Shown here: positions 493-16,617 of the stretch, in pieces
Layout of the letters: each line of letters opens with the position of its first letter
Position numbering within the stretch: position 1 is the stretch's first letter
Source of the DNA: Mycobacteriales bacterium
GTDB lineage: Bacteria; Actinomycetota; Actinomycetes; BP-191
Assembly: GCA_046590575.1 (NCBI GenBank)
Contig: JBKJUS010000165.1
Span: 8,635-72,634, forward strand
Direction: 5' to 3'
DNA: 64,000 bases
Translations under genes and position numbers: made by a program
Notes under the pieces: model-generated
What the model was told of the DNA's origin: nothing
Database searches by the model: none
Seen by the model: the letters and a program-made list of their open reading frames with translations, nothing else

Positions 493-652
493 CCACCATT
501 GCCTAGCCTGTGCGGACGGCTTAGGGTCGGTCATCTTAGGATTACAGGTTGCCTGGGTTCCACTACGTGAGCGCGAAACACGGTCGCGCGGCACGATAGG
601 CGGAGGGGCCCACGGGGCGGCGCACCGAGCGAAAGGCGTAGCGGTTTTCCGC

Positions 653-2950
653 ATGACGGCGACGACGGCTCGCGAGATCCCGCGCGACCCCAAGGTGCTC
701 GCGCACGCCCTCTGGGCCGCTGCTCGGCGGCGCAGTGATGTCGTCGCCCTCACCGCCATCGTGGTCAGCACTGTGGTCTTCCCGAGACGCAGCCCGCTTG
801 GCGTCTACGGCCTCGGTGTCGTCACGGGATCGCTGTTCGCTCTCAACGCGATCGGCCTGGTGCTCGTCTACCGCAGCAACCGCATCATCAACTTCGCCCA
901 GGTGGCCGTGGGCGGCGTAGGTGCCACCTTCTTTGCGACGAGTGTGACCTATGAACCGCTGCTGCGGTTCTGCCTGGACAAGGGCGTGTTCGACACCGAG
1001 CCCTCGTGGTTCACCACGGCCAACTACTGGGCCTCAGCAGTCGTCGGGTTGGCGCTGTCGGTGCTGCTCGGCTGGTTGATCCACACCTTCGTCGTACGCC
1101 GATTCGCCGACGCTCCGCGGCTCGTGGCGACCGTGACGACGATTTTCCTCGTGTCGGTCTGCGGCTTGATCAGTCGGGAGATCCGCAGCTCGAAGATCCT
1201 GCGCAGCACGGACCAGATCGAGGCGCAGGTGCAGGTTGGCGCCCCGGATCCGCCGTTCGACATCACGATTGACTTGCCCGGCGTACGACTCACCAGCCGT
1301 GACCTGCTCGCCGTCGGCATTGTCGCCCTCGTGATCCCGCTGCTCACGCTCTACTTCCGCCGGTCCAGCACGGGTGTGGCGATTCGCGCGGCGGCCGACA
1401 ACCCGTCCCGGGTGGCGTCACTTGGCGTCGACGTCAATGTCGTCGTCGGCAAGGTCTGGCTGATAGCCGCCCTGCTCTCCGGGCTCGCAGCCATCCTCAC
1501 CACGATGGGCAGCGGGCCGCCGCCGGACGGCGTCGAGATCAACGTCGGTCTCCTCGTCCGCATCCTTGCGGCGGCGGTGATCGCCCGTCTCGTCAGCCTG
1601 CCGGTGGCCGGGATCGCGGCCATCGGGCTTGGTGTCCTGCAGGAGACGATGCTGTTCTCGTTCGGCACGCCGCTGCTGCTCGACGCGTTCCTCGTCCTGA
1701 TCATCGGCTTGGTGCTCATGCTGCAGCGAATCACCGCCGTGCGGGCCGACGTCGACGTCGCGAGCTCCTGGCGGGCGGCGCGTGAGGTGCGCCCGATCCC
1801 GGGGGAGCTACGCGGCCTTCCCGAAGTCGTGAAGTGGGTGCGCATCGGCGCCTGCAGCGCGGCGGTGCTGGTTCTGGGCGCTCCGTGGGTGCTCTCACCC
1901 AGCCAGACCGACTTGGCGTCCTACGTCCTGATCGCCACCATGATGTTCCTGTCGGTGCTCGTGCTGACCGGCTGGGCCGGCCAGATCAGTCTCGGACAGT
2001 TCGCGTTCGCCGCCATCGGCGCGTGGGTGACCGGCGCATCCGGCTGGCCCTTCCCGGTGGCCGTGGTTGCCGGCGCTGCTGCGGGTGGAGCTGCGGCACT
2101 GGTGGTCGGCATACCCGCGCTCAAGCTGCGCGGTCTCCACCTCGCGATCATGACCCTGGCCTTCAGCCTCGCAGTGACGACGTTCGTGCTGAACCCTCGT
2201 TACCTCGGTAAGCACCTGCCGAGTGACGTCACGCGCCCGTCGCTCCTCGGCATGAATCTCGATGACGGCCGGGTCTTCTTCTACGTCCTCCTTCTGCTGC
2301 TGGTCCTCGTTGCTGGTGCAGTTGCCGGGCTGCGACGTAGCGCCACCGCGAGAGCACTCATCGCGGCCCGCGACAACGAGGCGGCGGCGCAGGGCTTCGG
2401 CATCAACCTGCTGCGGGCGCGGCTTCAGGCGTTTGCCGCCTCCGGGGCGATCGCGGGCTTCGCCGGCTCGTTGCTCGCCTACCAACAGAACTCCGTCATC
2501 CCCGACAGCTTCAGCGCCGCTCAGAGCCTGCAGGTGTTCCTCTACGCCGTGATCGGCGGCCTCGGAGCGGTCAGCGCCCCACTGATCGCCGGCGTCTACT
2601 TCGCGCTGGTCACAGTCCTCGACTTGCCCGCGGACCTCGTCCAGCTGATGACCGGCGCAGGCGGTGTGCTGCTGCTTATGGTGGCGACCGGTGGACTCGC
2701 GCAACTCGTCTTCGACCTGCGCGACAACCTGCTGCGTGGCGTCGCCCGCCGCCGCAAGATCATCGTGCCGAGTCTGCTCGCCGACCAGCGGGACAGCGGG
2801 ATCGGGGAGTCCCGGCTGGCTATCACGCCGAAGCGCCGCCGCGGGGGTGGCACGGAGTTCGTGCCGGCACGCTATCGACTCGACGGCCAGCACGGCATTC
2901 CGGTGCCGGTCAGCCCACCGGGGGAGTCCGTCGCAGGTGCCCGTGGTTGA
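653..2950 (+). CDS. Fused LivH-LivM type ABC permease (branched-chain amino acid / HAAT family)
   Basis: Track ORF 179..2950, trimmed to ATG 653 (MTATTAREIP) just before the first hydrophobic segments. The N half is LivH-like (LVYRSNRIINFAQVAVGG). The C half is LivM-like (GQISLGQFAFAAIGAWV, ARDNEAAAQGFGINL). Many TM segments. Confidence 0.8.
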   Translation: MTATTAREIPRDPKVLAHALWAAARRRSDVVALTAIVVSTVVFPRRSPLGVYGLGVVTGSLFALNAIGLVLVYRSNRIINFAQVAVGGVGATFFATSVTYEPLLRFCLDKGVFDTEPSWFTTANYWASAVVGLALSVLLGWLIHTFVVRRFADAPRLVATVTTIFLVSVCGLISREIRSSKILRSTDQIEAQVQVGAPDPPFDITIDLPGVRLTSRDLLAVGIVALVIPLLTLYFRRSSTGVAIRAAADNPSRVASLGVDVNVVVGKVWLIAALLSGLAAILTTMGSGPPPDGVEINVGLLVRILAAAVIARLVSLPVAGIAAIGLGVLQETMLFSFGTPLLLDAFLVLIIGLVLMLQRITAVRADVDVASSWRAAREVRPIPGELRGLPEVVKWVRIGACSAAVLVLGAPWVLSPSQTDLASYVLIATMMFLSVLVLTGWAGQISLGQFAFAAIGAWVTGASGWPFPVAVVAGAAAGGAAALVVGIPALKLRGLHLAIMTLAFSLAVTTFVLNPRYLGKHLPSDVTRPSLLGMNLDDGRVFFYVLLLLLVLVAGAVAGLRRSATARALIAARDNEAAAQGFGINLLRARLQAFAASGAIAGFAGSLLAYQQNSVIPDSFSAAQSLQVFLYAVIGGLGAVSAPLIAGVYFALVTVLDLPADLVQLMTGAGGVLLLMVATGGLAQLVFDLRDNLLRGVARRRKIIVPSLLADQRDSGIGESRLAITPKRRRGGGTEFVPARYRLDGQHGIPVPVSPPGESVAGARG

Positions 2951-5900
2951 CCTCCGCAACGACCACGAGCTGCAACGAGTCGCCGGCCCGGTGGGTCATG
3001 GGGAGCTGACCCAGCGCCGACTCGTGCCGACCGGTCGGGAGCAGGCTCTCGGCCGATCCGCAGACGTGGTCACGTTCGAATCGACCGTCGAGGTCGACGA
3101 CGTGTCCACCGAGCAGCGGTCGCCGAGGCGTCGGCGGGTCACGTCCTATGTCCGCAACCTCGACCCCCGGCTGGTCGGCGCGCCGCTGTTCCCGATGGTC
3201 GCCATCTCCCTGGTGTCGACGCTGCAGCAGGTCGAGCTGCGAGCCATCGGCCTGTCGCTGCCGGAGATCCGCACGGACACCGGTCTCAGCCTCACCGCGC
3301 TGCTGTTCGCCATCTCGATGCTGTCCTACGGAACGCAGCTCGCGCTGCCGCTTATGGGCTGGCTGGCTGATCGCCGATCGCGCGTGGCCATGATGCGCAT
3401 CGGTGCGGGCCTGGCCGCTGTCGGCAACGTCGTCTTCGCGTTCGGCGGCTCGATCGCGACGCTCGCGCTCGGTCGGTTGGGAGCGGCATCCGGCGACACC
3501 GTGTCGAGACCCGCGGGCTACACCCTGCTGGCCGACCACTACCCGGTGCTCGCGCGAATCCGCATCGTCTTCTTCCTCTTCACGGTCGGCGGGATCCTCA
3601 ACGTCGTCGTGATCGGCACCGCGGGGTTCGCCATCGGGTCGATCGGCTGGCGTCCGGTATTCGTCGCCCTCGGCCTCGTGTACGCCCTGGGTGCATTGCT
3701 GCTGTTGCGGGTGCATGAGGTGCCGCGTGGCTACTGGGAGCGCAAGGGCCTTGGCGCCAGCGAGGAAGTGGCCCGCACGGAGCAGGCGCCGGTCAGCTGG
3801 AAGGAGAGCTGGCGCGCCGCTGCCAGCATCGGGCTTGTCCGCCGACAGTGGATCGCGGCGCCGCTCTTCGGCGTCGTCAACCTCTTCGTCACGCTCTTCG
3901 TCGGCACCTACTTCGCGCAGCGGTACGGACTGACCCCGGGTCAGCGGACCATCATCGAGATCATCAACGCGTCGGCCGTTCTTTTCGGCCTGCTCTTCAT
4001 CGGTCAGCCGCTCGCTCGACTTATCACGACCCGTCCGCGGGTGGTCATAGGTCTGCAGGCGTCCCAAGGCGTGCTCACGACGATTGGCTTCGGCAGCCTG
4101 CTCCTCGCGCCCAACCTGACGGTCTCCGTGGTCATCGTGGCGCTGATGTCGTTGGTCAGCGGCACGGTCTTTCCGCTCCAGCTGGGACTGCTCTCCTTGG
4201 TGATTCCGCCACGCCTGCGCGGCTTCGGCATGCAGACGCTCTACTTCTGGGCAGTGCCGTCCGCGGTGATCTTCGCGGTCATCGGCGGGCAGTCGGCGAC
4301 CCGCGGTCTCGGTCAGACCCTGCTGTTCATGGCGCCCTTCGGCCTTGCTGCGAGCATCGTGCTGCTGACCGCGATGCCCTTAGTCGAGCGGGACATCCGC
4401 GCCGGGCTGCAGGCCAGCCTCGCGGACGAAGAGGCCCGGCTGGCCCGCGCGAGCGGCCGCAACAAGATGCTGATCTGCCGAGGTGTCGACGTCGCCTACA
4501 GCGGTGTGCAGGTGCTCTTCGGCGTCGACCTCGACGTCGAGGAGGGCGAGATCGTCGCGCTGCTCGGCACCAACGGTGCCGGCAAGTCGACGCTGCTGCG
4601 CGCGATTGCCGGGGTGCAGGAAGCGACCGGTGGAGCGATCTTCCTCGACGGCCGTGACATCACCCACGTGCCGCCGCACGAGAACGCCGCGGCGGGAGTG
4701 GTGGTCGTGCCCGGTGGTCACGCCGTGTGCGCCACGTTGACGGTGGAGGAGAACCTGCGCACCGCGGCTTGGTTGCACCGCAAGGACGAAGGCTACGTCG
4801 CGGAGCGACTCGAGCAGGCGCTCACTCTCTTCCCGGCGTTGCGAGCGCGGTTGGGATCCGACGCCGGCAACCTCAGCGGCGGAGAACAGCAGATGCTCGC
4901 CATCGCCCAGTCCTACCTGATGGATCCGCGCTTGCTGATGATTGACGAGCTCTCGCTCGGACTGGCACCGCAGGTGGTCGAGACCTTGCTCGACTCCTTG
5001 CGGGCCATCAACGCCAGCGGCACGACGATCCTGCTGGTCGAGCAGTCGCTGAACGTTGCGCTGACGATCGCCCAGCGCGCCGTCTTCATGGACAAGGGCG
5101 AGGTGCGGTTCGACGGCAGCACCGAAGAGCTGCTTCAACGTCCCGATCTGGTTCGGGCTGTCTTCATGGGGAGCGCCAGCAGCGGCCGCGCGATTCGCCG
5201 TCGCGCCCGGATGCCAGACGCGGAGACCGAGCGGCTGCTCGATGTCGACGGTCTCACGGTGCGCTTCGGCGGCATCAACGCGCTGACTGACGTGTCCCTG
5301 CTCGTTCGGCCGCGGGAGGTGGTCGGGATCATCGGCCCCAATGGCGCAGGCAAGACCACGTTGTTCGACGCCATCTCCGGCCTGACGCCCACCGAGAGCG
5401 GCCGAGTCGTGATCAAGGGTGGTGACGTCACCGCGCTCACCCTGGACGGCCGTGCGGCGGCCGGCCTCGGGCGGTCCTTCCAGAATGCTCGGCTCTTTCC
5501 CTCAATGACTGTCCGAGAGAACATCGCGGTCGGCCTGCATCGACACGTGAAGGCCCGCAATCCGCTGCTGGCCGCGCTGTGGGCCCCGATGGTTCGCGGC
5601 GCAGAAAGGCAGGCCCGCCTGCGAGTGGACGACGCGATCGAACTCCTAGGCCTGCATGCCTACGCCGACAAGTTCGTCGGCGAGCTGTCCACCGGCACCC
5701 GTCGAGCCGTCGACATCGCCGCCATCATGATGGCCAGTCCAGACGTGCTGCTTCTCGACGAGCCGTCATCCGGCCTTGCACAGGCCGAGACCGAGGCGCT
5801 GGGACCGATGATCCTGCGACTCGTTCGTGAGACGGGCTGCGGTGTGCTGATGATTGAGCACGACCTCCCGCTCGTCACCGGCGTCGCCGACCGGTTGATC

Positions 5901-6110
5901 GCGATGGAGCTCGGTCAGATCATCGCCATGGGCGCGCCGGACGAGGTCATGCGTGACCCTGAGGTGCGTCGTGCCTACCTCTCGGCCTCCAAGGAAGTTC
6001 TGCTCCGGTCCGGCAGCGTCCTCGGTGCCGCTCTCGCCGCTGCGGGCCTGGCTACGAATCCACCCCCTGCTGACGCACCCGTGCTTCGCACCACCATCGA
6101 GAGGACCTGA
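2937..6110 (+). CDS. Single ORF fusing an MFS-type membrane domain with LivF-like and LivG-like ABC ATPase domains
   Basis: Track ORF 2664..6110. GTG 2937 overlaps the upstream stop (2948-2950); the start is uncertain. MFS motif A-like GWLADRRSRVAMMRIG and WRPVFVALGLV. NBD1: GEIVALLGTNGAGKSTLL, LSGGEQQMLAIA, LLMIDELSLGLAP. NBD2: GIIGPNGAGKTTLF, LSTGTRRAVDIA, LLLDEPSSGLA. No stop codon lies between the three modules. Confidence 0.75.
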   Translation: MPVVDLRNDHELQRVAGPVGHGELTQRRLVPTGREQALGRSADVVTFESTVEVDDVSTEQRSPRRRRVTSYVRNLDPRLVGAPLFPMVAISLVSTLQQVELRAIGLSLPEIRTDTGLSLTALLFAISMLSYGTQLALPLMGWLADRRSRVAMMRIGAGLAAVGNVVFAFGGSIATLALGRLGAASGDTVSRPAGYTLLADHYPVLARIRIVFFLFTVGGILNVVVIGTAGFAIGSIGWRPVFVALGLVYALGALLLLRVHEVPRGYWERKGLGASEEVARTEQAPVSWKESWRAAASIGLVRRQWIAAPLFGVVNLFVTLFVGTYFAQRYGLTPGQRTIIEIINASAVLFGLLFIGQPLARLITTRPRVVIGLQASQGVLTTIGFGSLLLAPNLTVSVVIVALMSLVSGTVFPLQLGLLSLVIPPRLRGFGMQTLYFWAVPSAVIFAVIGGQSATRGLGQTLLFMAPFGLAASIVLLTAMPLVERDIRAGLQASLADEEARLARASGRNKMLICRGVDVAYSGVQVLFGVDLDVEEGEIVALLGTNGAGKSTLLRAIAGVQEATGGAIFLDGRDITHVPPHENAAAGVVVVPGGHAVCATLTVEENLRTAAWLHRKDEGYVAERLEQALTLFPALRARLGSDAGNLSGGEQQMLAIAQSYLMDPRLLMIDELSLGLAPQVVETLLDSLRAINASGTTILLVEQSLNVALTIAQRAVFMDKGEVRFDGSTEELLQRPDLVRAVFMGSASSGRAIRRRARMPDAETERLLDVDGLTVRFGGINALTDVSLLVRPREVVGIIGPNGAGKTTLFDAISGLTPTESGRVVIKGGDVTALTLDGRAAAGLGRSFQNARLFPSMTVRENIAVGLHRHVKARNPLLAALWAPMVRGAERQARLRVDDAIELLGLHAYADKFVGELSTGTRRAVDIAAIMMASPDVLLLDEPSSGLAQAETEALGPMILRLVRETGCGVLMIEHDLPLVTGVADRLIAMELGQIIAMGAPDEVMRDPEVRRAYLSASKEVLLRSGSVLGAALAAAGLATNPPPADAPVLRTTIERT

Positions 6111-6111
6111 G

Positions 6112-7152: not shown

Positions 7153-7171
7153 GACCCGGCGACTCGACGCT

Positions 7172-8473: not shown

Positions 8474-9006
8474 CGATGCTCAGCGATCGCCCGCCCGCGG
8501 CCGGCGGCATCGACCCAGTCCTCACCGACCCAGACACCGGCGCGACATCGGTCGATGACGAAACGGCCGATCGCCCGGTCGGCATCATGCTCACCTGCGC
8601 CGCGGTGCTCCTCTCGTCTGCTGCGGCGGCGTGGATGCTCGCCGGGATCTTCCAAGGCGTGCTGCCCAAGGTGATGGCCTTGGCTGCCGCAGCGGCCGGT
8701 CCCGGCCTAGTTGCGGCGTCGTACCGGACGCGCCGTCCGGCAGTTGTGCAGTACCTCGCGCTGCCGCTGGCACTCGCCGCCGGCGCCGCGGTCGTCGTCC
8801 CCGCCACCACCGGCGGTTCGGCCAACTTGCCCAGCCTGGTCGTGGAGGCGGTGCGCGGGGGTGGGCTGAGCCAGCCGCCGGTGCCCTTCGAGCCGGGCTG
8901 GCGCTTTTTGCTCGTCGTACTCGTCTCCTTGCTCGGTGTCGGCGCGGCCGCGCTGACACCGCCCTCGACAAACCCCGACTCGGCATCGCGGTGCCTCTTC
9001 CGGTAG
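8470..9006 (+). CDS. Polytopic membrane segment resembling the N-terminal (DUF3488-like) part of TgpA-type transglutaminase proteins; either a separate small gene or the 5' fragment of a frame-broken gene
   Basis: ATGA overlap with the DUF58 stop (8470-8473). 178 aa with 4-5 hydrophobic helices. The reading frame ends at TAG 9004-9006, while the hydrophobic pattern continues in another frame. Confidence 0.55.
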   Translation: MTMLSDRPPAAGGIDPVLTDPDTGATSVDDETADRPVGIMLTCAAVLLSSAAAAWMLAGIFQGVLPKVMALAAAAAGPGLVAASYRTRRPAVVQYLALPLALAAGAAVVVPATTGGSANLPSLVVEAVRGGGLSQPPVPFEPGWRFLLVVLVSLLGVGAAALTPPSTNPDSASRCLFR

Positions 9007-11405
9007 TCGTCGCGGCCGCCCTGGTGCAGCCGCCCAGCAGCGCCGTGACCGCCAGCATCGTGGCGATGGTGCTGCTCGTTGCTGCGCTCGTGCTGTCCTC
9101 GGGTGCCCAGCTGATGCAGGACGGTTCCTCGTCGGGGGCGTTCGAGACGCGGCGGCTGCTTCGCGGTCTCGGTGGCCTGACAGTGCTGGCCGTGGCTCTC
9201 GGTGGGGTGAGTCAGGCTGGCTTCCTCTTCCCGGCGCAGCCGGCCGAGCGGGTCATCCCACCGAAGCGTCCGCAGGCGCAGCCACCGCTGTCCGACCGGG
9301 TGCTCTTCACAGTCGAGTCAGCCGATCCTGGACCCTGGCGATTCGGCGTCATCGACGTCTACGACGAGACCGCGTGGTTGCTCCCGCCGCTCGACCGTTC
9401 CCGGTTCGTCGCGGTGCCTGGGTCCGGCAGCCTCGCTGAAGCGGTCGCCGACCGCGCCGAGCGGCCGGACGACGGCCCCGCCGCGATTCCCGCGACGCCG
9501 ACGGGGACGCGCACGCTGACGTTCGAGGTCGGCGACCTGCCCGGTCGCGTGCTGCCGACGGTCGAGGGTCAGATCACCGTCCGCGAGGACAGCGTCGACC
9601 TGGAGCTCGACCCGCGCACCCAGACCCTCCGATCAGGAAAGGGGCGGGCCGCCCTCGGCGGCAGCTACACCGTCACCGCCGCGATCCCGCCCTCGGCGAC
9701 GGACCTCGCTGCGATCTCGGCCGACCTTCCTCGCTCGCTCGATCCGTTCCTCGCGGCACCTGAGCCGCCGTCCGACGTCAGCGCGCTCCTGGCCGCAGCG
9801 CCCCAGGCGCCGTTCGAACGACTGCAGTTCGTCCGTAACGCGCTCTACGCCAAGGTCGTCGCCGCGGGGGAGGGCACTCCCATCGACGTCCCGCCCGCGC
9901 GCGTGGCGGAGCTGCTCAGCGGCGCCGAGGCGACTCCGTACGAGATCACGGCCGCGGAGGCGCTGCTCACCCGCTGGGCCGGGGTGCCTTCGCGCATCGG
10001 CTTCGGGTTCTACTCGGGCACCAGAACCGCCGATGGTGGCGCCTTCGAGGTGCACCCGCGGGACGGGGCCACCTGGCTCGAGGCCTACTTCGAGGGACCG
10101 GGCTGGATCACGATCGTCGGTCGACCACCGAGGGCGAAGGCGAGCACCGACCTCAATCAGAAGAACCAGGACCCGCAGCTGCGAGCCAGCGAGGACCTCG
10201 CGCTCGTCGTGCGGGTGCCGGTCGAGCTGGCAAACCTGCGGCAGCTCTATGACGACATCCGTTTCTACCTGCTCGTCTCGTTGCCATGGGTGCTACTTGT
10301 TGTGCTCGGGATCGTCTTCTACCCCGCCGCCTTGAAGGTCGTACGACGATGGCGCCGTCGCCGGTGGGCTCGTGACCGCGGTCTGCCGGCGCGGGTGCTC
10401 GTCACGTATGCCGAGATGCGTGACCGGCTGCGAGACGTCAACGCGCCTGACCCCTCAGCCACGCCGTTGGAGTTCGTGTCCTCCGTCGACTTCGACGAGG
10501 AGCACTGGGAGCTTGCCTGGCTGACGACGCGGGCACTGTGGGGCGACCTACGGCGCGACCTGCGGCTCGAAGACGTCGAGGCGGCCGAGGACATGGCTCG
10601 ATCGGTGACCCAACGCGTGCTGCGCGCGCAGCGAAGCGTCCCGCGTGCCCTCGGGCAAGCGTCCCGAGTCTCCCTGCGCGACCCCTTCACTCGCGACGTT
10701 CCTAACGCGTGGCCATCCGGTGACCGCGCCCGACGCGTGCGTGCGCAGTCGCGCCGGGTCAGCCCCTTCCGCCTTGGTCGAGCTGTGCTCCCGGCCCTTC
10801 GGGCAATGACGCCCAGTCGTGTGCTGCGCATGCGTCGAGGTGCCCCAGGCAGCGCTGTGATGATCCTGCTGATCGTAGTGATGACCCTGGTCACCGGCTG
10901 CAGCGGCGGCTCGCCGGGGTCGGCCGCTCCGTCGCTGCCGGAGAACCTGGTGCCCGACGAGATCGGTGAGTTTCGGTTGCAGCGGGAGCCGACAGCGGAA
11001 GCGAAGTTCACCGAGGTCGGTGACGCCGCGCTCGTCACCGGGGGTCGCGTCTACACAGTCCGGCGGGACGGCGAAGTGCTCGGCTCACTGCAGGCGGCAA
11101 CCTTCAAGGACTCGGTGCGGGGCAACCTGAAGAAGGTGCAGAAGGGCTTGCGGGCCAGCATCGGCACGGGTGACTTCACGCTGCAGCGCATCGGCACCGA
11201 ACCGGTCTACGTCCTGCAGCAGAACGAGTTGAAGATCCTGCTGTGGTTCCCGCCTGGAGGCGGCTACTACGAGATGCTCGACGCCAGGCAGGGATTCGAC
11301 GAAGCCGAGCGGGTCTTCCTGGCGATCTTGAACTTCCAGCGCGGCCGTCCGGTCGGGCTCGACGCCGACACCGCTGTCGTCGACATCCGCCGTGGAGGCG
11401 ACTGA
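8991..11405 (+). CDS. Transglutaminase-like (catalytically degenerate) / DUF4129-like membrane protein with an in-frame C-terminal lipoprotein-like module
   Basis: Frame of track ORF 8631..11405; first plausible start is GTG 8991. TGase-core-like LLTRWAGVPSRIGFGFYSG...ATWLEAYFEGPGWITIV. A TM helix, then DUF4129-like TPLEFVSSVDFDEEHWELAWL. From 10806 there is a signal/lipobox-like MTPSRVLRMRRGAPGSAVMILLIVVMTLVTGCSGG. Confidence 0.6.
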   Translation: MPLPVVVAAALVQPPSSAVTASIVAMVLLVAALVLSSGAQLMQDGSSSGAFETRRLLRGLGGLTVLAVALGGVSQAGFLFPAQPAERVIPPKRPQAQPPLSDRVLFTVESADPGPWRFGVIDVYDETAWLLPPLDRSRFVAVPGSGSLAEAVADRAERPDDGPAAIPATPTGTRTLTFEVGDLPGRVLPTVEGQITVREDSVDLELDPRTQTLRSGKGRAALGGSYTVTAAIPPSATDLAAISADLPRSLDPFLAAPEPPSDVSALLAAAPQAPFERLQFVRNALYAKVVAAGEGTPIDVPPARVAELLSGAEATPYEITAAEALLTRWAGVPSRIGFGFYSGTRTADGGAFEVHPRDGATWLEAYFEGPGWITIVGRPPRAKASTDLNQKNQDPQLRASEDLALVVRVPVELANLRQLYDDIRFYLLVSLPWVLLVVLGIVFYPAALKVVRRWRRRRWARDRGLPARVLVTYAEMRDRLRDVNAPDPSATPLEFVSSVDFDEEHWELAWLTTRALWGDLRRDLRLEDVEAAEDMARSVTQRVLRAQRSVPRALGQASRVSLRDPFTRDVPNAWPSGDRARRVRAQSRRVSPFRLGRAVLPALRAMTPSRVLRMRRGAPGSAVMILLIVVMTLVTGCSGGSPGSAAPSLPENLVPDEIGEFRLQREPTAEAKFTEVGDAALVTGGRVYTVRRDGEVLGSLQAATFKDSVRGNLKKVQKGLRASIGTGDFTLQRIGTEPVYVLQQNELKILLWFPPGGGYYEMLDARQGFDEAERVFLAILNFQRGRPVGLDADTAVVDIRRGGD

Positions 11406-11406
11406 C

Positions 11407-12495
11407 ATGTCCCGTCTGACGCGCGCCGCTGCGGCGCTCGCTCTCGCTGCACTTGTCGGGTGCTCTCCGCCGACGTCGGTGTCGGTCGGCGTGAAGGACC
11501 TCTCGACCGACATCGAGTTCAGCCGCGCTGACGCCACTCCCGTTCCGGTAGTTGCGCCGCCTCCGGTCACCGGAGTCCCTGGCTTCCCGATCGCACCGCT
11601 GCCGCCCAACGTGGTGCAGCCGGGCGGACCGGTCGTGGTAGCGCTGCCGCCTGACCTGCCGCCGCCAGCCCCGCTGCCGAACACCTGCCCGAAGGCGAGC
11701 CCGCTGGTGGCGGCGAAGAACGCGAACACCCCGCGACCTGGCGCGCCGCCGGTCGCCGCGTCCTACCGCTATCGGCTCTCGGGGAGCTTCACGGTCACGG
11801 GTGCGCATCCGGCGAGCGGCGTCTACCCGGCGACGTCCGTGCGTGGGATCCGCGATGTTCAGGAGATCGCCGGTGGAGGTGGCTACGAGTTCTTCATCAG
11901 CGACGACATGGGGATGGACGTCGGCTACACCGTCATCCCGGAGCAGCGAGCGGCACCGCAGAACCCAGTGGGCGTGGGGGAGCAGCCAACTCCGGTTGAA
12001 GCCGGCATCTATGTGAACGGGTTCACCTACCGGCGGGCGGACGGCACCACGCTGAGTCTGCGGCCACAACCTTTCGTGATGATCGCCAAGCTGCCGCTCG
12101 CTCCCGGTGACAAGTGGCAGTCCAAGGGCGTCGACCCGGCCACTGGCGTCAGTGTCATCGTCAACGGCCAGACCGGGCTGGGGGAGGAGTTCTCCCCGAG
12201 CCGCGACCGGGTCGACGCGTGCGGCACGGTGCTCGACGCGACGTGGGTCGAATACACCGTGGACACCACGCCGTTGACGGGTGCGACGGCTGACGAAGAG
12301 CCGCCATCATCCATCGTTGGCGGCGGTCTCGGGATCCAGTTCGTCGGCACGCGACTCGCCTTCGCCAACCAGTACGGCGGACTGCCCATCCACGAAGTGG
12401 TGCGCCTGGTCGGGGTGGACGGTGCCGACACCGTCGACATCACCCGCGAGGCAGTCATCCTGTCGGAACCAGCGCTTGCCGCGGCGCCCTCGTGA
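11407..12495 (+). CDS. Lipoprotein with proline-rich linker, unknown function
   Basis: ATG 11407 lies 1 nt after the upstream TGA, with GGAGG 9 nt upstream. Signal plus lipobox MSRLTRAAAALALAALVGCS. A Pro-rich tract precedes a globular domain. Confidence 0.7.
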   Translation: MSRLTRAAAALALAALVGCSPPTSVSVGVKDLSTDIEFSRADATPVPVVAPPPVTGVPGFPIAPLPPNVVQPGGPVVVALPPDLPPPAPLPNTCPKASPLVAAKNANTPRPGAPPVAASYRYRLSGSFTVTGAHPASGVYPATSVRGIRDVQEIAGGGGYEFFISDDMGMDVGYTVIPEQRAAPQNPVGVGEQPTPVEAGIYVNGFTYRRADGTTLSLRPQPFVMIAKLPLAPGDKWQSKGVDPATGVSVIVNGQTGLGEEFSPSRDRVDACGTVLDATWVEYTVDTTPLTGATADEEPPSSIVGGGLGIQFVGTRLAFANQYGGLPIHEVVRLVGVDGADTVDITREAVILSEPALAAAPS

Positions 12496-14192
12496 GCAAG
12501 CTGCCTTCCACAGAGCGGAGACGTCGTCGCGTATGTGTGGTGACTCTCGTCATGATCACCGCGAGTGGATGCTTCGGCGGCGCGACATCTGATCCCGCAC
12601 CGATTCCCTCCTCGCTGCCGGGGGTGGCCGCTGGCGGTGAGCTGGTTGTCGGCATAGTCACTCCGGTTTCGATTGACCCCGCGCTGGTGACGCCCACCGA
12701 TGTCGGCGGCACCACCGTCGTGCGCACGATGTGCGACTCACTGCTATCGCTGGACCCGGCAGAGTCGGTTCTGCGGCCGTCGATCGTTGAGTCCTGGCGA
12801 GTGCTGGAGGGGGGCGAGCGGATCGCGTTGCGGCTGCGGGACGATGTCCGTTTCTCCAATGGCGATCGGTTGAGCGCGCAGGACGTTGCCGCGTCTCTTG
12901 CCCGCGTCGTCTCGCCGGACACTGTGTCGCCGGTGGCGAATCAGCTGGAGCGAATCCTCGGCTTCACCGCACTTCGCGAGCGCAAGGTTGAGCGGGACGA
13001 TCTCGCTGGGATCCAGGTCGTCAGCTCACGTGACCTCGAGCTGGTGATCTCCCCTCGGGACGCGCAGTACGTGAACCTGCTCGCGAGCACCCTCGCGGTG
13101 CCGGTCCCCCGCAAAGCGGCGGATGACGCAGCGTTCTCTGCGCGACCGATCTGCGCCGGGCCGTATGTTCTGACGGCTCCCTGGCAAACTGGCGAGCCGA
13201 CGATCATGCTCGAACGTTCGAGTCGGTACTTTTCCGGCAACACCGCCGTGACTCGCGGCGGTGCCGGCTGGGCCGACCGCATCATCTTCAAGCTCTACCC
13301 ATCTCGGGAGAAGGCAGAGGAGGCCTTCCGACGCGGCGACGTCGACGTCGCCCCGCTGGCCAACGACCGGCTCGCGGCGGCCGCCGCGATCCCGGGTGCA
13401 GCGATCGAGACGCGCCCTACCGGCACCCTGGAATACGTCGGACTGCCGACGACGACGGCGCCCTTTGACAACCCCGATGTACGCCGCGCGTTGAGCCAGG
13501 CGTTGGACCGCTCGCGGATCGCGAAAACGGTCTACGTGGGCGGCCGAGTGCCGGCCACGTCACTGCTGCCCACCAACCTGCCCGACCGGCTTGTCGACCA
13601 CGGGGTGTGTGCCGGAGCGGCGCCTGTCGACGGTGATCGCGAAGCCGCCCGTCGGTCTCTGGCCAAGTCCGGGGTGTCGCTGGAAGGCGTCACCGTGCCG
13701 CTCTACTTCAACGATGAGTTTCGCAACCGAGCCCTGATGATCGAGGTGGCCGCGCAGTGGCGGTCCGCTTTCGGACTGCGCACCCGTTTGGTGCCGCTTC
13801 CATTCGACAGTTACGTCGGACGAGGAACCGGCGGCACCGGCTTCGATGGACCCTTTCGGCTCGCCTTCGCTGCGCCGTACCTCGACGCGGGGGAGTTCTT
13901 CGGTCCACTGTTCTCGACCGACGCGATCGGGACCGACAACTTCAGTCGGTTCTCCAGTCCGCGGTTCGACCGGGATCTCCGCCGAGAAGCGCGTCAGGCC
14001 ATCGCCATCGAAGATCAACGGGCGGAGTACGCCGCGCTGCATCAGCTCTTGTGCACCCAGCTGCCGGTGATCCCGGTCGTGCTCGGCACGGCGAGTTACA
14101 TCGTGCGGTCCAGCGTCGTGGCCTCGGCGACGGGGCGGGTGGTCGACAGGGCAACGGCGACACCACTTCTCCGAGAGCTCTACCTCCGGTGA
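12492..14192 (+). CDS. ABC transporter substrate-binding lipoprotein, family 5 (Dpp/Opp/nickel type)
   Basis: GTGA overlap with the upstream stop. Lipobox ITASGCFGG. Family-5 SBP-like segment ERIALRLRDDVRFSNGDRLSAQDVAASLARV. About 560 aa. Confidence 0.75.
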   Translation: MSKLPSTERRRRRVCVVTLVMITASGCFGGATSDPAPIPSSLPGVAAGGELVVGIVTPVSIDPALVTPTDVGGTTVVRTMCDSLLSLDPAESVLRPSIVESWRVLEGGERIALRLRDDVRFSNGDRLSAQDVAASLARVVSPDTVSPVANQLERILGFTALRERKVERDDLAGIQVVSSRDLELVISPRDAQYVNLLASTLAVPVPRKAADDAAFSARPICAGPYVLTAPWQTGEPTIMLERSSRYFSGNTAVTRGGAGWADRIIFKLYPSREKAEEAFRRGDVDVAPLANDRLAAAAAIPGAAIETRPTGTLEYVGLPTTTAPFDNPDVRRALSQALDRSRIAKTVYVGGRVPATSLLPTNLPDRLVDHGVCAGAAPVDGDREAARRSLAKSGVSLEGVTVPLYFNDEFRNRALMIEVAAQWRSAFGLRTRLVPLPFDSYVGRGTGGTGFDGPFRLAFAAPYLDAGEFFGPLFSTDAIGTDNFSRFSSPRFDRDLRREARQAIAIEDQRAEYAALHQLLCTQLPVIPVVLGTASYIVRSSVVASATGRVVDRATATPLLRELYLR

Positions 14193-14782
14193 TGCTGACG
14201 CCAGCGCGCGCGAGCGTCCTCTGCGCTCTCCTCGGCCTGGTGAGCGTTGCCTGCGAGTCCGGTCGTCCGTCGTCGGCGACCCTGCTCGCGGACGTCGTAC
14301 TGACATCTATCGCCGATCCCGGCTTTGTGGATGAGGTTGCGGCGACCGGGCCCATGCCGCTCGACACGGCGGCCAAGGCCACGACGGTGCGAGCCGACGT
14401 GCTCGGTGACTATCTGGGAGAGCAGGGCTACGACGGGGGATTCGCCCGAGTCCTGACCCGCGGCGAGGAGTTCGTCACGCTGCTCGCCTATGACCTCGCC
14501 GATGAGGCGGGCGCAGAGGGACTGGTCGACCTCGTCCTCAGCGAGCTGACCGGGTCGCTGGCCTTTCGACCGTTCGACGATCCGGCGGTGCCAGGCAGCC
14601 GCGGATTCACCCTGACCAGCGATGTAGGCGGCAAGGTGCGGTTCTGCGTCGGTGAGTGGTTCGCGCATCGCTCACATGCCTACGCCGTCACCCGCTGCGC
14701 TCCCTTCGTCCTGTCCGTGCCGGCCGTCACGTCGATTGCGCTCGCCCAGTACCGTCGGGTCGTCGAGAAAGACCTCGCATGA
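14192..14782 (+). CDS. Small lipoprotein, unknown function
   Basis: Track ORF 13757..14782, trimmed to ATG 14192 (GTG 14189 is also possible), overlapping the upstream stop 14190-14192. Signal/lipobox MLTPARASVLCALLGLVSVACESG. Confidence 0.6.
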   Translation: MLTPARASVLCALLGLVSVACESGRPSSATLLADVVLTSIADPGFVDEVAATGPMPLDTAAKATTVRADVLGDYLGEQGYDGGFARVLTRGEEFVTLLAYDLADEAGAEGLVDLVLSELTGSLAFRPFDDPAVPGSRGFTLTSDVGGKVRFCVGEWFAHRSHAYAVTRCAPFVLSVPAVTSIALAQYRRVVEKDLA

Positions 14783-16590
14783 CGCGCTCCCGTCCCGCCG
14801 GCGACATCGCTCTGATGCACCGCACCGGGCGGCGCTCCTCCTATGACAAGGCTCCGGTTGTCGCGGTCGGTGACCGCATGGAGTGCGCGGTCGGCTGGGC
14901 AGAAATCGCCGGTCGGCTGACCTCGGGTGGCCCATCCACGATTGTCGTCGAGACCTACCCGGGCGTGCGCGAGGAGGATCTCGACGCTCTGGTCGCAGAG
15001 CTCGGCGCGAACCTGGTGATTCGCGCGGAGTCCGCCCTCCGCCCGTCCGCCGCGATCGACCAGTTGATTGCCGCCGACCTCACCGACGACCCGGTCTTCG
15101 GCAGGCTGAGCAGTCTCACCCTGCTCGACCTCTTCGATCCGAGCGCACTTGCGGACCTGCGAGCCAGCGCTCGGGTCGGCCAGGGCCGCGTTGTCGTGGT
15201 CGGCGTAGGTGCTTCGTTCATCGTCGACGACGCAGATGATGCTGGCGCGCAGGAGGGCACCACGGTCGTTGTGTACGCCGACCTGCCCCGCCGCGAGCTC
15301 ACCTTGCGCCAGCAGTCGGGAGCGATCGGCAACCTCGGCGCCGACAACGCGGGCGAGCGGGCGTCGGTGAAGTACAAGCGGGCGTTCTTCGTCGACTGGC
15401 GCCTCGCCGATCGGCACAAGCAGGCGCTGTGGCCGAGCGTGCGCTTCGTCCTCGACACCGTGCATGCCGACCAGCCCAAGATGGTCGCCGCCGCGGCGAT
15501 GTTCCGCGGCCTCGAGTTGACGACCACCCGGCCGTTTCGGGTCGTCCCGTGGTTCGAGCCGGCGCCGTGGGGCGGCGACTGGATGAAGGAGGTCTGTGAC
15601 CTCCCGCGCGACACGGTCAACTTCGGCTGGTGCTTCGACTGCGTGCCGGAAGAGAACTCCCTGCTGCTCGGCTTCGGCGACGCCGTCTTCGAGGTGCCAT
15701 CGGCGAACCTCGTCTTCCACTGTCCCGTGGACCTGCTCGGTGCCGATGTGGCAGACCGGTTCGAGGGTGAGTTCCCGATCCGCTTCGACTTCCTCGACAC
15801 CATGGGCGGCGGCAACCTCTCGCTGCAGGTGCATCCGCTGACCAGTTATATCCGGGAGCACTTCGGGCTCACCTTCACCCAGGATGAGTCCTACTACATG
15901 CTCGATGCCGACGAGGGCGCGGCGGTTTACCTGGGGCTGCGCACCGGTATCGACCGACACGCGATGGTGCAGGACCTTCGCTCTGCCCAGGAGGGCGGGC
16001 CGGCCTTCGACACCGACAGCTATGTCAACAAGTGGCCCGCTGCCCGGCATGACCACTTCCTCATCCCGGCCGGCACAGTGCACTGCTCGGGAGCAGGCGC
16101 CATGGTGCTGGAGATCAGCGCAACGCCGTACATCTTCACGTTCAAGCTGTGGGACTGGGATCGCCTCGGGTTGGACGGCCGGCCTCGCCCGGTGCACCTC
16201 GATCACGGGGCGAGCAACATCCAGTGGCAACGCGACACCGACTACGCGATCGCAAAGCTCATCAACCGCCTGACGCCGATCGGGGAGGGCGAAGGCTGGC
16301 GGGCCGAACGCACCGGGCTGCACGAGGCGGAGTTCATCGACACGCACCGGCACTGGTTCACCGGCATCGTGGATCACGACACGTCAGGCGGGGTGAACGT
16401 CCTCAACCTGGTCCAGGGCGACGAGGTCGTGATCGAGTCACCCGATGGTGCTTTCGCGCCGTTCGTCGTGCACTACGCCGAGACATTCATCGTGCCGGCG
16501 GCCGTCGGGCGCTACACGATCCGTCCGCACGGTTCGGCCGAGGGCACTGAGTGCGCGACGATCAAGGCCTTCGTCCGCTCTGCCGAGTAG
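14779..16590 (+). CDS. Class I mannose-6-phosphate isomerase-like (long PMI type I family) protein
   Basis: ATGA overlap with the upstream stop (14779-14782). Cupin metal motifs LSLQVHP...DESYYML and IPAGTVHCSGAGAMVLEISATP. Confidence 0.7.
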   Translation: MTRSRPAGDIALMHRTGRRSSYDKAPVVAVGDRMECAVGWAEIAGRLTSGGPSTIVVETYPGVREEDLDALVAELGANLVIRAESALRPSAAIDQLIAADLTDDPVFGRLSSLTLLDLFDPSALADLRASARVGQGRVVVVGVGASFIVDDADDAGAQEGTTVVVYADLPRRELTLRQQSGAIGNLGADNAGERASVKYKRAFFVDWRLADRHKQALWPSVRFVLDTVHADQPKMVAAAAMFRGLELTTTRPFRVVPWFEPAPWGGDWMKEVCDLPRDTVNFGWCFDCVPEENSLLLGFGDAVFEVPSANLVFHCPVDLLGADVADRFEGEFPIRFDFLDTMGGGNLSLQVHPLTSYIREHFGLTFTQDESYYMLDADEGAAVYLGLRTGIDRHAMVQDLRSAQEGGPAFDTDSYVNKWPAARHDHFLIPAGTVHCSGAGAMVLEISATPYIFTFKLWDWDRLGLDGRPRPVHLDHGASNIQWQRDTDYAIAKLINRLTPIGEGEGWRAERTGLHEAEFIDTHRHWFTGIVDHDTSGGVNVLNLVQGDEVVIESPDGAFAPFVVHYAETFIVPAAVGRYTIRPHGSAEGTECATIKAFVRSAE

Positions 16591-16617
16591 CGCCCGGACC
16601 TAGGGGCGGCTACCTGC

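Follow-up and report, generated by a model that had tools for sequence, protein, structure and literature searches.

We found that a compact array in the window, i.e. the whole 64,000-nt stretch of DNA analysed here, joins a Liv-type ABC importer to a four-gene module encoding a MoxR ATPase, a DUF58 protein, a TgpA-like protein deprived of its catalytic triad (pseudo-TgpA) and a lipoprotein (g7), and that this linkage is conserved in related loci. We give an even chance to the proposal that the module assembles or gates the importer, both belonging to one membrane system. An AAA+/vWA module acting on the transport complex would be the best-supported reading, its basis being the conserved linkage, and the obscure MoxR triad gains a concrete candidate client, a Liv-type ABC importer. 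As the earlier note had supposed, the combination is not described as a system in the literature searched.

Table 1. Features of the array and its flanks (positions in the window).
Feature	Positions	Strand	Description	Method
ROK-family gene, 3' fragment	1-492	+	Flank, not core	
Array g1-g10	653-16590	+	Co-directional, stop/start-coupled; nine genes after correction	
g1	653-2950	+	Fused LivH-LivM-type permease, 765 aa, two BPD_transp_2 domains	
g2	2937-6110	+	MFS_1, LivF-like NBD and LivG-like NBD, 1055-1057 aa	
g3	6112-7152	+	MoxR (MRP-type) AAA+ ATPase, 346 aa	
g4	7172-8473	+	DUF58 protein, 433 aa	
g5+g6	8470-11405	+	One TgpA-like gene, 978 aa when corrected	
g7	11407-12495	+	Lipoprotein, lipobox LVGC	
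g8	12492-14192	+	SBP_bac_5 solute-binding lipoprotein, OppA/MppA-like, lipobox ASGC	
g9	14192-14782	+	Putative lipoprotein, 196 aa, accessory	
g10	14779-16590	+	Cytoplasmic protein, 603 aa, accessory	
SASA esterase	16618-17709	-	Lineage-specific flank	Pfam
DUF5005/DUF4185	17706-18836	-	Lineage-specific flank	Pfam
Conserved 696-aa protein	18856-20946	-	No assigned function; lineage-specific flank	
GntR/UTRA regulator	21084-21878	+	Lineage-specific flank	Pfam
'fam11' SBP	21950-23647 (start approximate)	+	Divergent, Peripla_BP_6-like	tblastn

The array had been read as eleven genes. All of the nine junctions quoted in the earlier note (9/9) were present, but they delimit ten ORFs and, one of them being a frameshift artefact, the count falls to nine genes: the string formed by GTG 8991 and TAG 9004-9006 exists but lies inside a single frameshifted TgpA-like gene. 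The stop of g1 (TGA 2948-2950) is overlapped by either possible start of g2 (GTG 2937 or GTG 2943). TGA 6108-6110 is followed by ATG 6112 (g2/g3) and TGA 11403-11405 by ATG 11407 (g6/g7), a 19-nt gap precedes ATG 7172 (g3/g4), and the other neighbours meet in ATGA 8470-8473 (g4/g5), GTGA 12492-12495 (g7/g8), TGATG 14190-14194 (g8/g9) and ATGA 14779-14782 (g9/g10). The start codons are supported because the alignment of g1 to a 765-aa orthologue (80% over the full length) begins at residue 1, and because identical 8-nt, 1-nt and 4-nt arrangements occur among the called genes of loci L001 and L018. In a heuristic count, junctions of -4, -8, +1 and about 10 nt were seen again in around 20 related loci. 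This recurrence indicates conserved compaction rather than chance in a single genome, and the description of the array as one co-directional, overlap-coupled unit was upheld.

A scan of positions 1-18000, not tuned to Actinobacteria, detected no sigma-70-like promoter on either strand and three terminator-like sites, against 5.0 expected from shuffles. The sole site on the + strand of the array is a weak one within g8 at 13208. The 160-nt gap 493-652 is the one non-coding stretch of note upstream of the array. That the region encodes a single membrane system of several components and is transcribed as one operon is, in our estimate, about equally likely to be right or wrong.

The identities proposed for g1 and g2 were confirmed by Pfam and NCBIfam. 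The permease g1, with about 14 or more hydrophobic segments, matched PF02653 in two stretches (E 4e-50), its N-terminal half corresponding to LivH/UrtB and its C-terminal half to LivM/UrtC in NCBIfam. In g2, Pfam recognized MFS_1 (8e-25), ABC_tran twice (5e-60) and BCA_ABC_TP_C, while NCBIfam placed LivF/UrtE at residues 510-745 and LivG/UrtD at 764-1016. The MFS_1 domain has about 12 TM segments and a motif A, 'GWLADRRSR', and the Walker A/B and signature motifs of the NBDs read intact in the translation.

The importer is, however, not 'SBP-less' as had been claimed: the operon encodes the SBP_bac_5 lipoprotein g8, and the Peripla_BP_6-like fam11 SBP lies 5 kb downstream, a gene that is adjacent to the transporter or to g7 in relatives. 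The g8 protein matched SBP_bac_5 (Pfam 4e-52), and in the PDB it came closest to proteins that bind peptides, murein peptides and oligopeptides (3e-30 to 1e-23). SBP_bac_5 proteins are known to dock on Opp/Dpp-type (BPD_transp_1) permeases and not on those of LivHM type, so that g8 may not feed the LivHM-type translocator. The fam11 copy of the window had no Pfam match but is 45-47% identical to the copies of L004 and L011 (tblastn, E ~1e-150), and the family is tied to Peripla_BP_6 via the L003 member (Pfam 1.6e-7). Its orthologues lie directly upstream of LivHM in L004, L011 and L016, and directly after g7 in L035 and L036; this SBP probably acts as the transporter's Liv-class receptor. Since the slot after g7 holds an SBP gene, either SBP_bac_5, canonical Peripla_BP_6 (L017, L036) or BP6-like (L035, L036), transport components bracket the MoxR module.

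Within the module, Pfam confirmed the first two identities. MoxR (g3; AAA_3 2e-61, AAA_lid_2 8e-21) retains the Walker A (GTGKT) and Walker B (DEINRA) motifs. The DUF58 protein (g4; 3.5e-11) is predicted from hydropathy and the positive-inside pattern to carry a 2-TM hairpin at its N terminus and a vWA-like domain in the cytoplasm, and the alignment of 21 loci revealed the conserved motif 'LLDT[DSG]xxxH[ST]' instead of a canonical DxSxS MIDAS.

The tblastn frame switch and the DNA alignment with L001 and L002 showed that a single TgpA-like gene had been read as two ORFs, 8470-9006 and 8991-11405, because of a 1-nt deletion between 8954 and 8955. The gene is intact in all relatives (968-978 aa), including the closest one (975 aa; 87% identity in g2), and the copy of the window is either defective or an assembly error. 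The corrected protein is predicted to consist of seven TM segments, an extracytoplasmic domain of 346 aa whose transglutaminase-like core lacks Cys, His and Asp, TM8, a 162-aa Arg/Lys-rich loop predicted to be cytoplasmic, TM9 and a 161-aa C-terminal domain; hydropathy and the positive-inside pattern place both the transglutaminase-like and the C-terminal domains outside. The label 'TgpA-like' held for the family, supported by Pfam (Transglut_core 2e-6), by alignment of the transglutaminase-like region to Pseudomonas aeruginosa TgpA (PDB 6g49) and by weak TgpA_N matches of the orthologues. It did not hold for the catalytic triad, which is gone in every orthologue: Cys is replaced by Pro, Asp by Gly or Val, and His by Thr, Ser, Val, Ala and similar residues, within motifs that are highly conserved. 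Inactive TGL domains have been argued to be peptide binders (Zhang & Aravind, PMC3495828).

The lipoprotein g7 comprises a Pro-rich tether and an all-beta domain of about 260 aa with two invariant Cys. Searches of Pfam, NCBIfam and PDB sequences gave no match, and an AF2 model (pLDDT 84.6) yielded no confident fold match; the family counts 645 representatives (50%-identity clusters) at E<=1e-3. Judged by its sequence, g7 is the founder of a new lipoprotein family without a Pfam entry.

The linkage is not limited to this genome. Searches started independently from three seeds, namely the MFS-LivF-LivG fusion, TgpA and g7, led to about 23 independent loci in which LivHM, (MFS-)LivFG, MoxR, DUF58, TgpA, g7 and an SBP are linked, mostly through 4-nt overlaps and with no counter-example. 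The carriers are uncultured soil-bacterial genomes: every locus comes from a MAG or a metagenome, and a cultured carrier was not found among 185,579 species representatives. MoxR was immediately downstream of the g2 homologue in 5/5 loci at >=50% identity, and LivHM and MFS-LivFG accompanied TgpA in 8/8 GTDB-species loci whose contig reaches upstream. In metagenomes, a distant g7 seed (24-30% identical to that of the window) recovered the whole set in all long-enough loci, as did far g7 representatives with long contigs (4/4). Identity to the window's copies ranges from 42 to 87% for g2 and from 54 to 93% for MoxR, and the conserved linkage could partly reflect vertical inheritance in a perhaps narrow radiation.

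This linkage bears on a different view, that two independent systems share an operon because they act in one physiology, for example the turnover of envelope or peptides, and do not interact physically. They would be an SBP-dependent Liv-type importer and an ordinary MoxR-vWA-TGL module of the protein-processing type proposed by Zhang & Aravind. As a self-contained operon of three genes, the triad is very common (PMC3495828), the flanking genes differ among loci, and MFS-LivFG transporters at 37% and 33% identity have no MoxR module; since these distant transporters work without it, the module is not intrinsically needed by the architecture. We nevertheless consider the view rather unlikely, because the triad was never found apart from the transporter with any of the three seeds and is inserted between the translocator and SBP genes. 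Furthermore, the linkage survives an altered gene order and the loss of MFS. In L031 and L034, LivHM follows g7 instead of preceding MoxR (both contigs start inside the module, so that a second, upstream copy is possible), and L037 encodes a 1339-aa permease-2xNBD fusion lacking MFS. Finally, to judge from the residues lost, the peptidase activity of the degradation model would be abolished in every TgpA-like member.

In the mechanism that we prefer, where the module assembles or gates the importer, we infer the interaction, the direction of control and the substrate from gene content, predicted topology, residue loss and strict linkage. The importer is of HAAT/Liv type, built from the fused LivH-LivM permease and the MFS-like 12-TM/LivF/LivG ATPase polypeptide, and probably served by two lipid-anchored receptors, the OppA/MppA-like SBP_bac_5 and the divergent Peripla_BP_6-like SBP. 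The genes of the accessory module (MoxR, DUF58, pseudo-TgpA and g7) are inserted between those of the translocator and those of the receptors. By analogy with NorQ/NorD, CbbQ/CbbO and RavA/ViaA, DUF58 may tether a MoxR hexamer, on the cytoplasmic face, to the transporter or to pseudo-TgpA, and the hexamer may spend ATP on assembling or gating the importer. Facing outwards, g7 and the ectodomain of pseudo-TgpA could make up a non-catalytic platform that binds the SBPs or their ligand and that TM8, the Arg-rich loop and TM9 would connect to the cytoplasmic side. The cargo is likely a peptide or amino-acid-type solute.

The remaining genes vary. The label 'PMI-like' fits the C-terminal half of g10, whose last ~230 aa resemble class I phosphomannose isomerases (QVHP, E and H ligands present; PDB 1qwr 1.2e-9, 1zx5 5e-6), but g10 is lineage-specific and not a core member: it is in the operon only among close relatives of the window, and elsewhere on the opposite strand (L009, L011, L013) or absent. 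Similarly, of the array lipoproteins g7 is core whereas g9 is a lineage-specific add-on, without a match in Pfam or NCBIfam and detected by tblastn in near relatives and in L030 and L036. The ROK fragment is 76% identical to the L001 ROK protein (tblastn, E 5e-48). The 696-aa protein and GntR are conserved in L006, L009, L011 and L013, and the flank genes at 16618-21878 were not seen at more distant loci. Sugar-type genes flank or join the operon in the window and closer relatives, and L017 carries a GH2 gene after Peripla_BP_6, as would be expected of a carbohydrate/glycopeptide utilisation locus whose substrate is set by the PMI-like, ROK, GntR/UTRA, SASA and DUF4185 proteins, MoxR being incidental. 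Such a locus appears highly improbable: distant loci have no sugar genes (their neighbours are TetR, SDR, Nramp, PPK, DUF3887 and similar), g10 switches strand as described, and the closest solved relatives of g8 bind peptides.

Compared with LivJ/K-HMGF and UrtABCDE (HAAT family, TC 3.A.1.4), the array shares LivH-like and LivM-like BPD_transp_2 domains, LivG-/LivF-like NBDs with a BCA_ABC_TP_C tail and, at several loci, a Peripla_BP_6-class SBP. It differs by its fused permeases, by NBDs fused together and to an N-terminal MFS, by a usual SBP that is highly divergent, by a co-encoded family-5 (Opp-type) SBP and by the inserted four-gene MoxR module. To our knowledge, HAAT-family transporters are solely importers.

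The three-gene operon of MoxR (MRP subfamily), DUF58/vWA and transglutaminase-like (YebA/TgpA) genes was reportedly described by Snider & Houry in 2006. The array has the same three families in identical order, with an AAA_3 MoxR, a DUF58 with an N-terminal TM hairpin and a polytopic Transglut_core membrane protein. In contrast to this canonical triad, the array-type TGL domain lacks all three catalytic residues in every member, most members have an extra TM helix and a C-terminal ectodomain, and the triad invariably lies inside the operon of a Liv-type ABC transporter and directly precedes g7. Zhang & Aravind 2012 (PMC3495828) regarded the MoxR-vWA-TGL triad as a stand-alone, mobile unit, predicted to be a membrane-proximal peptidase/protein-processing system.

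Two actinobacterial systems likewise combine membrane-spanning MoxR, vWA/DUF58 and transglutaminase with an extracytoplasmic protein encoded alongside. In the threat-sensing Esr pathway of Schaalia odontolytica (bioRxiv 10.64898/2026.09.08.750141), MoxR and vWA act with a transglutaminase (EsrD) and the surface sensor EsrA; the bifidobacterial PFNA cluster is composed of pkb2-fn3-MoxR-DUF58-tgm (PMC8430577). In Esr/PFNA, an active transglutaminase anchors the large sensor, and the output is Ser/Thr kinase, phosphatase and FHA. In an analogous array, g7, the SBPs and the pseudo-TgpA ectodomain would detect an extracellular cue, MoxR-DUF58 would transduce it, and the ABC/MFS machine (switched uptake or export) would be the output in place of kinase-FHA. 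A lipid-anchored g7 'sensor' would make cross-linking dispensable, accounting for the dead triad. We find this unlikely, since no kinase, phosphatase, FHA, beta-propeller or Ig-repeat sensor is linked at any locus, PADLOC defence models matched generic P-loops only, and the transporter family is known only for import. The array has a small lipoprotein where Esr/PFNA have a large Ig/FN3/beta-propeller sensor, no kinase/FHA, a dead transglutaminase, and an ABC importer with SBPs as linked machinery.

The literature searched held no ABC transporter as a MoxR-vWA client. In NorQ/NorD-cNOR, CbbQ/CbbO-Rubisco and RavA/ViaA-respiratory complexes, MoxR and vWA proteins remodel or mature a client (PMC9976466, PMC13036017, PMC9489729, PMC3893208). 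As in the array, the genes for MoxR and a vWA-type adaptor neighbour those of one particular complex, often a membrane complex; in the array, however, a membrane-anchored DUF58 whose MIDAS is non-canonical takes the place of the adaptor, and the module adds the extracytoplasmic pseudo-TgpA and g7.

A linkage between a Liv-type transporter and a MoxR-DUF58-TgpA module, which the earlier note had proposed to look for by a gene-neighbourhood survey, was found with three seeds in about 23 independent loci (homologous loci in other MAGs and metagenomes are numbered L001 to L038). Neither module stood alone in any of the surveyed loci (about 23) with adequate sequence. The conserved core comprises the permease gene g1, the MFS-LivF-LivG gene g2, the MoxR, DUF58 and TgpA-like genes, the lipoprotein gene g7 and at least one gene for a solute-binding protein (SBP). 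The carriers found are all MAGs of uncultured soil bacteria; immediate experimental access is therefore limited and heterologous expression is needed.

With the g2 fusion as the first seed, a word-indexed search of 5.8 billion proteins gave about nine full-length relatives among the 8,000 candidates scored. MoxR lies immediately downstream of g2 in the five relatives (5/5; 50-87% identity) placed on contigs, and the whole series is present wherever the contig continues past MoxR. Two remoter MFS-NBD relatives (37% and 33%) are accompanied by a Peripla_BP_6-type SBP, without MoxR. The TgpA-like protein, used as the second seed against one genome per GTDB species, gave 12 loci, all in MAGs, labelled Actinomycetota, Frankiales, Frankiaceae, Mycobacteriales, Acidimicrobiales or Actinomycetes. 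The eight loci that reach upstream all carry LivHM, MFS-LivFG, MoxR, DUF58, TgpA and g7, with order and strand unchanged and g2 identities of 42-80%; of the others, three start within the module and one lies on the L001 contig. With g7 as the third seed, a scan of metagenomes that started from distant members of the family produced 16 loci in which g7 is 24-30% identical to that of the window, and the full set was present in all those that are long enough. The system was also found in four of four far g7 representatives, picked by long contigs alone.

LivHM is located downstream of g7, and not upstream of MoxR, in L031 and L034; both contigs start inside the MoxR/TgpA module, and an extra upstream copy of the transporter is possible. 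In L037, a 1339-aa permease-2xNBD fusion without the MFS domain is followed by MoxR-DUF58-TgpA-g7. Complete copies occur in L035 and L036 (GCA_035569495.1 and GCA_054638635.1), two of the four far representatives, whose labels fall outside Actinomycetota: Candidatus Angelobacter (Acidobacteriota in the NCBI taxonomy) and Candidatus Dormibacteria. Their proteins are no more diverged from those of the window than are those of the Actinomycetota-labelled MAGs. The likely reason is horizontal transfer or unreliable labelling of the MAGs, two explanations that such identities do not separate.

In the window (66-73% G+C), long ORFs form an unbroken series on the + strand from 653 to 16590. The junction strings quoted in the earlier note were all recovered at their coordinates, and homology agreed with the proposed starts: residues 1-765 of g1 align with an orthologue that is itself 765 aa long. 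Two close relatives repeat the 8-nt (g1/g2), 1-nt (g2/MoxR) and 4-nt junctions in their called genes. Spacings of -4, -8, +1 and about 10 nt are kept across loci according to a heuristic script, some cells of which are wrong (e.g., g2 to g3 in L011) and of which the overall pattern alone was used. No sigma-70-like promoter was detected by a consensus scan, and a single weak terminator-like site was found on the + strand of the array, at 13208 within g8; the scan is not tuned to Actinobacteria. Over positions 1-18000, both strands included, three terminator-like sites were observed and 5.0 were expected from shuffles. It is probable that the array constitutes one functionally coupled system. 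That the transporter and the module are co-regulated but physically independent systems appears unlikely.

The eleven genes initially claimed have to be reduced. The junctions listed delimit ten ORFs, and because two of them are halves of one gene, the true count is nine. The presumed boundary between GTG 8991 and TAG 9004-9006 lies inside this single, frameshifted TgpA-like gene. Using TgpA orthologues of 968-970 aa as queries, tblastn placed the frame switch near 8961-8976, and DNA alignment with two relatives revealed one missing base between 8954 and 8955 (GCGCT^GACACC), which splits the gene into ORFs 8470-9006 and 8631/8991-11405. The gene is intact in all relatives, including the closest one (975 aa; g2 87% identical). 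The frameshift reflects either an error in the assembly or a very recent pseudogenisation. A programmed frameshift was rejected: slippery or homopolymer context is lacking and every relative is in frame.

Genes of the array and the second SBP gene in the window
Gene	Position	Strand	Predicted product	Supporting match
g1	653-2950	+	Fused LivH-LivM permease	Two BPD_transp_2 stretches (PF02653), E 4e-50
g2	2937/2943-6110	+	MFS_1, LivF-like and LivG-like ATPase domains	
g3	6112-7152	+	MoxR-proper AAA+ ATPase	AAA_3, 2e-61
g4	7172-8473	+	DUF58 protein, N-terminal two-helix hairpin and cytoplasmic vWA-like domain	Pfam, 3.5e-11
g5+g6	8470-11405	+	TgpA-like protein, 978 aa when corrected	Transglut_core, 2e-6
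g7	11407-12495	+	Lipoprotein with Pro-rich tether	
g8	12492-14192	+	SBP_bac_5 lipoprotein, lipobox ASGC	Pfam, 4e-52, 363/368 profile positions
g9	14192-14782	+	Small putative lipoprotein	No matches
g10	14779-16590	+	C-terminal class I phosphomannose-isomerase-like core with N-terminal extension of about 240 aa	
BP6-like SBP	~21950-23647	+	Second SBP	45-47% identical to the L004 and L011 counterparts (tblastn)

The N-terminal half of g1 matches LivH/UrtB and its C-terminal half LivM/UrtC (NCBIfam), and the protein carries an Arg-rich tail of 87 residues. The MFS_1 domain of g2 has a recognisable motif A (GWLADRRSR), and its nearest solved relatives are DHA-type transporters, with weak E-values. 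The Walker A/B and signature motifs, read from the translation, are intact in both NBDs. These regions match two ABC_tran domains and BCA_ABC_TP_C in Pfam, and LivG (5e-96), UrtE (8e-95) and LivF (1e-77) in NCBIfam, all below the equivalog cut-offs.

This transporter had been described as SBP-less, which is wrong: g8 lies in the operon and a second SBP family is encoded further downstream. The nearest solved relatives of g8 are 8upi (3e-30), MppA (8e-24) and OppA (2e-23), which are peptide, murein-peptide and oligopeptide binders. Neither the operon nor the called genes of the related loci include a BPD_transp_1 (OppBC-type) permease. The role of g8 is uncertain, since we know of no family-5 SBP that docks on a LivHM-type permease. 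Genes of the BP6-like SBP family (557-587 aa) immediately precede LivHM in L004, L011 and L016 and immediately follow MFS-LivFG in L003, an outgroup locus that lacks MoxR and whose family member alone reaches Pfam Peripla_BP_6 (1.6e-7). The window's member has no Pfam or PDB match of its own and is linked to Peripla_BP_6 only through its homology with the L003 protein; PDB sequence searches with the family gave nothing useful. After g7, a canonical Peripla_BP_6 gene is present in L017 and L036, and a BP6-like gene in L035 and L036. The position after g7 is an SBP slot, occupied by different SBP classes in different lineages. The HAAT class of the transporter and the OppA/MppA-like SBP suggest that the substrate would be of the peptide or amino-acid type.

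Downstream of the operon in the metagenomic locus L032 (14269-19295), several paralogues or fragments of the BP6-like SBP lie in tandem, which suggests receptor diversification for a single translocator. In the window, an S15 X-Pro dipeptidyl-peptidase (Peptidase_S15 and PepX_C; 24680-26947, - strand) is encoded beyond the BP6-like SBP and DUF4185 genes and could fit a theme of peptide uptake.

The AAA_3 MoxR gene is followed by DUF58 and then by the membrane transglutaminase-like gene, and this order is kept in all loci. The beta1 motif of the DUF58 protein is conserved as LLDT[DSG]xxxH[ST], and not as DxSxS. The PADLOC defence models gave generic P-loop matches alone, and membership in a defence system was rejected on this result. 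The score for bpMoxR was 1e-7, versus 2e-61 for AAA_3.

Hydropathy and the positive-inside rule predict that the TgpA-like protein consists of seven TM segments, a 346-aa outside domain holding the Transglut_core match, TM8, a 162-aa Arg/Lys-rich inside loop, TM9 and a 161-aa outside C-terminal domain. Homology of this last domain with g9 was considered and rejected (BLASTP E 2.7). The family profile aligns to the periplasmic domain of Pseudomonas aeruginosa TgpA (6g49), the catalytic triad of which we take to be C404/H448/D464. Based on this alignment and manual registration, the Cys-His-Asp triad is missing in all of the about 25 orthologues, the most divergent included. The Cys is replaced by Pro within the motif [ST]P[YF][EQ][IL].A, the His by Thr or by Ser/Val/Ala/Met/Leu/Gln (GATWLEAYF), and the Asp by Val/Gly/Thr/Leu. 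The motifs flanking the lost residues are, however, nearly invariant. Loss of the triad everywhere together with the maintenance of these motifs argues that the domain is retained for a non-catalytic role. Inactive TGL domains have been proposed as peptide binders by Zhang and Aravind (PMC3495828).

No sequence match to the lipoprotein g7 was obtained in Pfam, NCBIfam or the PDB. Exhaustive searching of 1.84 billion representatives with HMMER identified 645 members at E<=1e-3, of which 343 reached E<=1e-10; nearly all of the 150 listed measure 300-420 aa. This defines a new lipoprotein family of at least 645 clusters at 50% identity, without a close solved fold. Word-indexed protein searches retrieved only 6-7 relatives, probably because of swamping by the Pro-rich linker. 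The AlphaFold model obtained from a 139-sequence alignment (pLDDT 84.6, pTM 0.76) predicts an all-beta domain at residues ~95-355, and the alignments show two invariant cysteines, C94 and C272. Foldseek comparison of this fold with the PDB gave no significant match, the best E being 1.9e-3 and TM <=0.25; LIMP-2, LolA3 and Phm7/Fsa2, which headed the weak matches, are open beta-barrel ligand carriers. A model from a 7-sequence alignment reached a pLDDT of 51 and gave Foldseek noise only. A role for g7 as the missing type-I SBP was rejected, because its all-beta fold of about 260 aa is unsuited. The lipid anchor of g7 would make transglutaminase cross-linking dispensable in a pathway resembling the MoxR-vWA-transglutaminase sensing clusters Esr (Schaalia) and PFNA (Bifidobacterium), with the transporter as its output; but no kinase or FHA gene is linked to the array, and we regard this explanation as quite unlikely.

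The last gene of the array, g10, has no Pfam or NCBIfam match. Its residues 249-476 match 1qwr (1.2e-9, phmmer), and the motifs LQVHP, ESYY and GTVH provide Gln/His (QVHP), Glu and His at the predicted metal-ligand positions. The earlier assignment as PMI-like thus holds for the C-terminal core, which carries the putative ligands of a class I phosphomannose isomerase. The g9, g10, ROK, GntR, SASA and DUF4185 genes are confined to the sub-lineage of the window. That flanking genes set the locus as one for sugar or glycopeptide utilisation is very improbable, since they are absent from the distant loci.

Several other features of the neighbourhood were recorded. The regions 16618-21878 and 23638-24657 are carbohydrate-flavoured and encode a SASA esterase, two DUF4185/DUF5005 proteins, a GntR/UTRA regulator and a 696-aa protein. 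The latter has no Pfam, NCBIfam or PDB match, and yet it lies beside the operon in L006, L009, L011 and L013; PDB sequence searches with this protein and with g9 gave nothing useful. In one relative, L002, a 100-aa PASTA-domain gene (14690-14992, - strand) is inserted, on the opposite strand, between g9 and the PMI-like gene; PASTA domains bind peptidoglycan fragments. An overlapping pair of half-size ABC exporters (ABC_membrane and ABC_tran; 34627-38216, + strand) has in its vicinity genes for a DUF4192 protein (27093-28343) and a class II fructose-bisphosphate aldolase (28333-29361, - strand). The only STPK of the window is encoded 25 kb away (41358-42956, + strand) and has a C-terminal PsbP/LpqN-like extracytoplasmic domain. 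Further away are an 816-aa BNR/Asp-box, Sortilin-Vps10-like beta-propeller protein (54602-57052, - strand) and a 1313-aa protein in which an adenylate/guanylate cyclase domain occurs together with an AAA_16 (STAND-like) NTPase and TPR repeats (59983-63924, - strand). Faint BNR/PSII_BNR proteins near the operon in L035 and L036 are possibly a coincidence.

The genes of MoxR, DUF58, pseudo-TgpA and g7 are thus situated between the translocator and receptor genes of a Liv-type importer. According to the predicted topology, MoxR and the DUF58 domain are cytoplasmic, and the transglutaminase-like domain, the TgpA C-terminal domain, g7 and the SBPs are outside. The module would be a dedicated accessory of the transporter, and may well act in its assembly or gating. 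By analogy with NorQ/NorD, CbbQ/CbbO and RavA/ViaA, DUF58 would tether a MoxR hexamer to a cytoplasmic surface, and the importer would be assembled or gated by MoxR. Candidate docking surfaces are the NBDs of g2, the Arg-rich 87-residue tail of g1 and the Arg-rich loop of TgpA. The pseudo-transglutaminase ectodomain and g7 would form an external binding platform, coupled via TM8, the cytoplasmic loop and TM9. More tentatively, and with somewhat low probability, the module might consist of obligate attached subunits of a new ABC importer class, in which the AAA+ motor and the non-catalytic platform license or power the hand-over of substrate from two different SBP classes.

To our knowledge, MoxR-DUF58-transglutaminase is one of the most frequent gene triads of prokaryotes for which no client or mechanism is known, and the very recent Esr work is the sole experimental handle on it so far. 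The present system offers a natural experiment, in which the triad is enzymatically dead, strongly constrained and always tied to one membrane machine. As SBP-dependent uptake is easy to assay, the client of the triad is directly testable. If the reading as obligate subunits is true, it would give the triad its first defined client and mechanism and would represent the first AAA+-assisted ABC transporter. A transporter as client would also widen the range of MoxR targets beyond metallo-enzymes and respiratory complexes. Two unusual Liv-type traits are documented here, the fusion of an MFS domain to the NBDs and the co-encoding of family-5 and family-6-like SBPs.

According to the literature, the MoxR-vWA-TGL triad is a very common operon that stands alone and has a predicted active peptidase (PMC3495828), whereas the triads of Bifidobacterium and Schaalia are linked to FN3 or beta-propeller sensors and kinases (PMC8430577; bioRxiv 10.64898/2026.09.08.750141). 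Kaur et al. (2020), who treated the MoxR-vWA ternary conflict systems, do not mention an ABC transporter context. In the literature covered, which is incomplete, we found no description of MoxR, DUF58, TgpA or transglutaminase genes arranged with an ABC transporter, and nothing relevant on an MFS-LivFG or HAAT-MFS fusion. Esr and PFNA comprise a Ser/Thr kinase, a phosphatase/FHA output and a large surface sensor with repeats, whereas none of these is encoded among the called genes of L001, L002, L018 and L035-L038. Ternary conflict systems are characterized by a VMAP/iSTAND-type third component and effector domains, unlike the present system. Active TgpA possesses the Cys-His-Asp triad, which is replaced in the window's family. 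In contrast, the BPD_transp_2 permease pair and the LivG/LivF NBDs are shared with HAAT importers. The system is a HAAT importer joined to a MoxR triad, both of known kinds, with a new lipoprotein family and a pseudo-enzyme.
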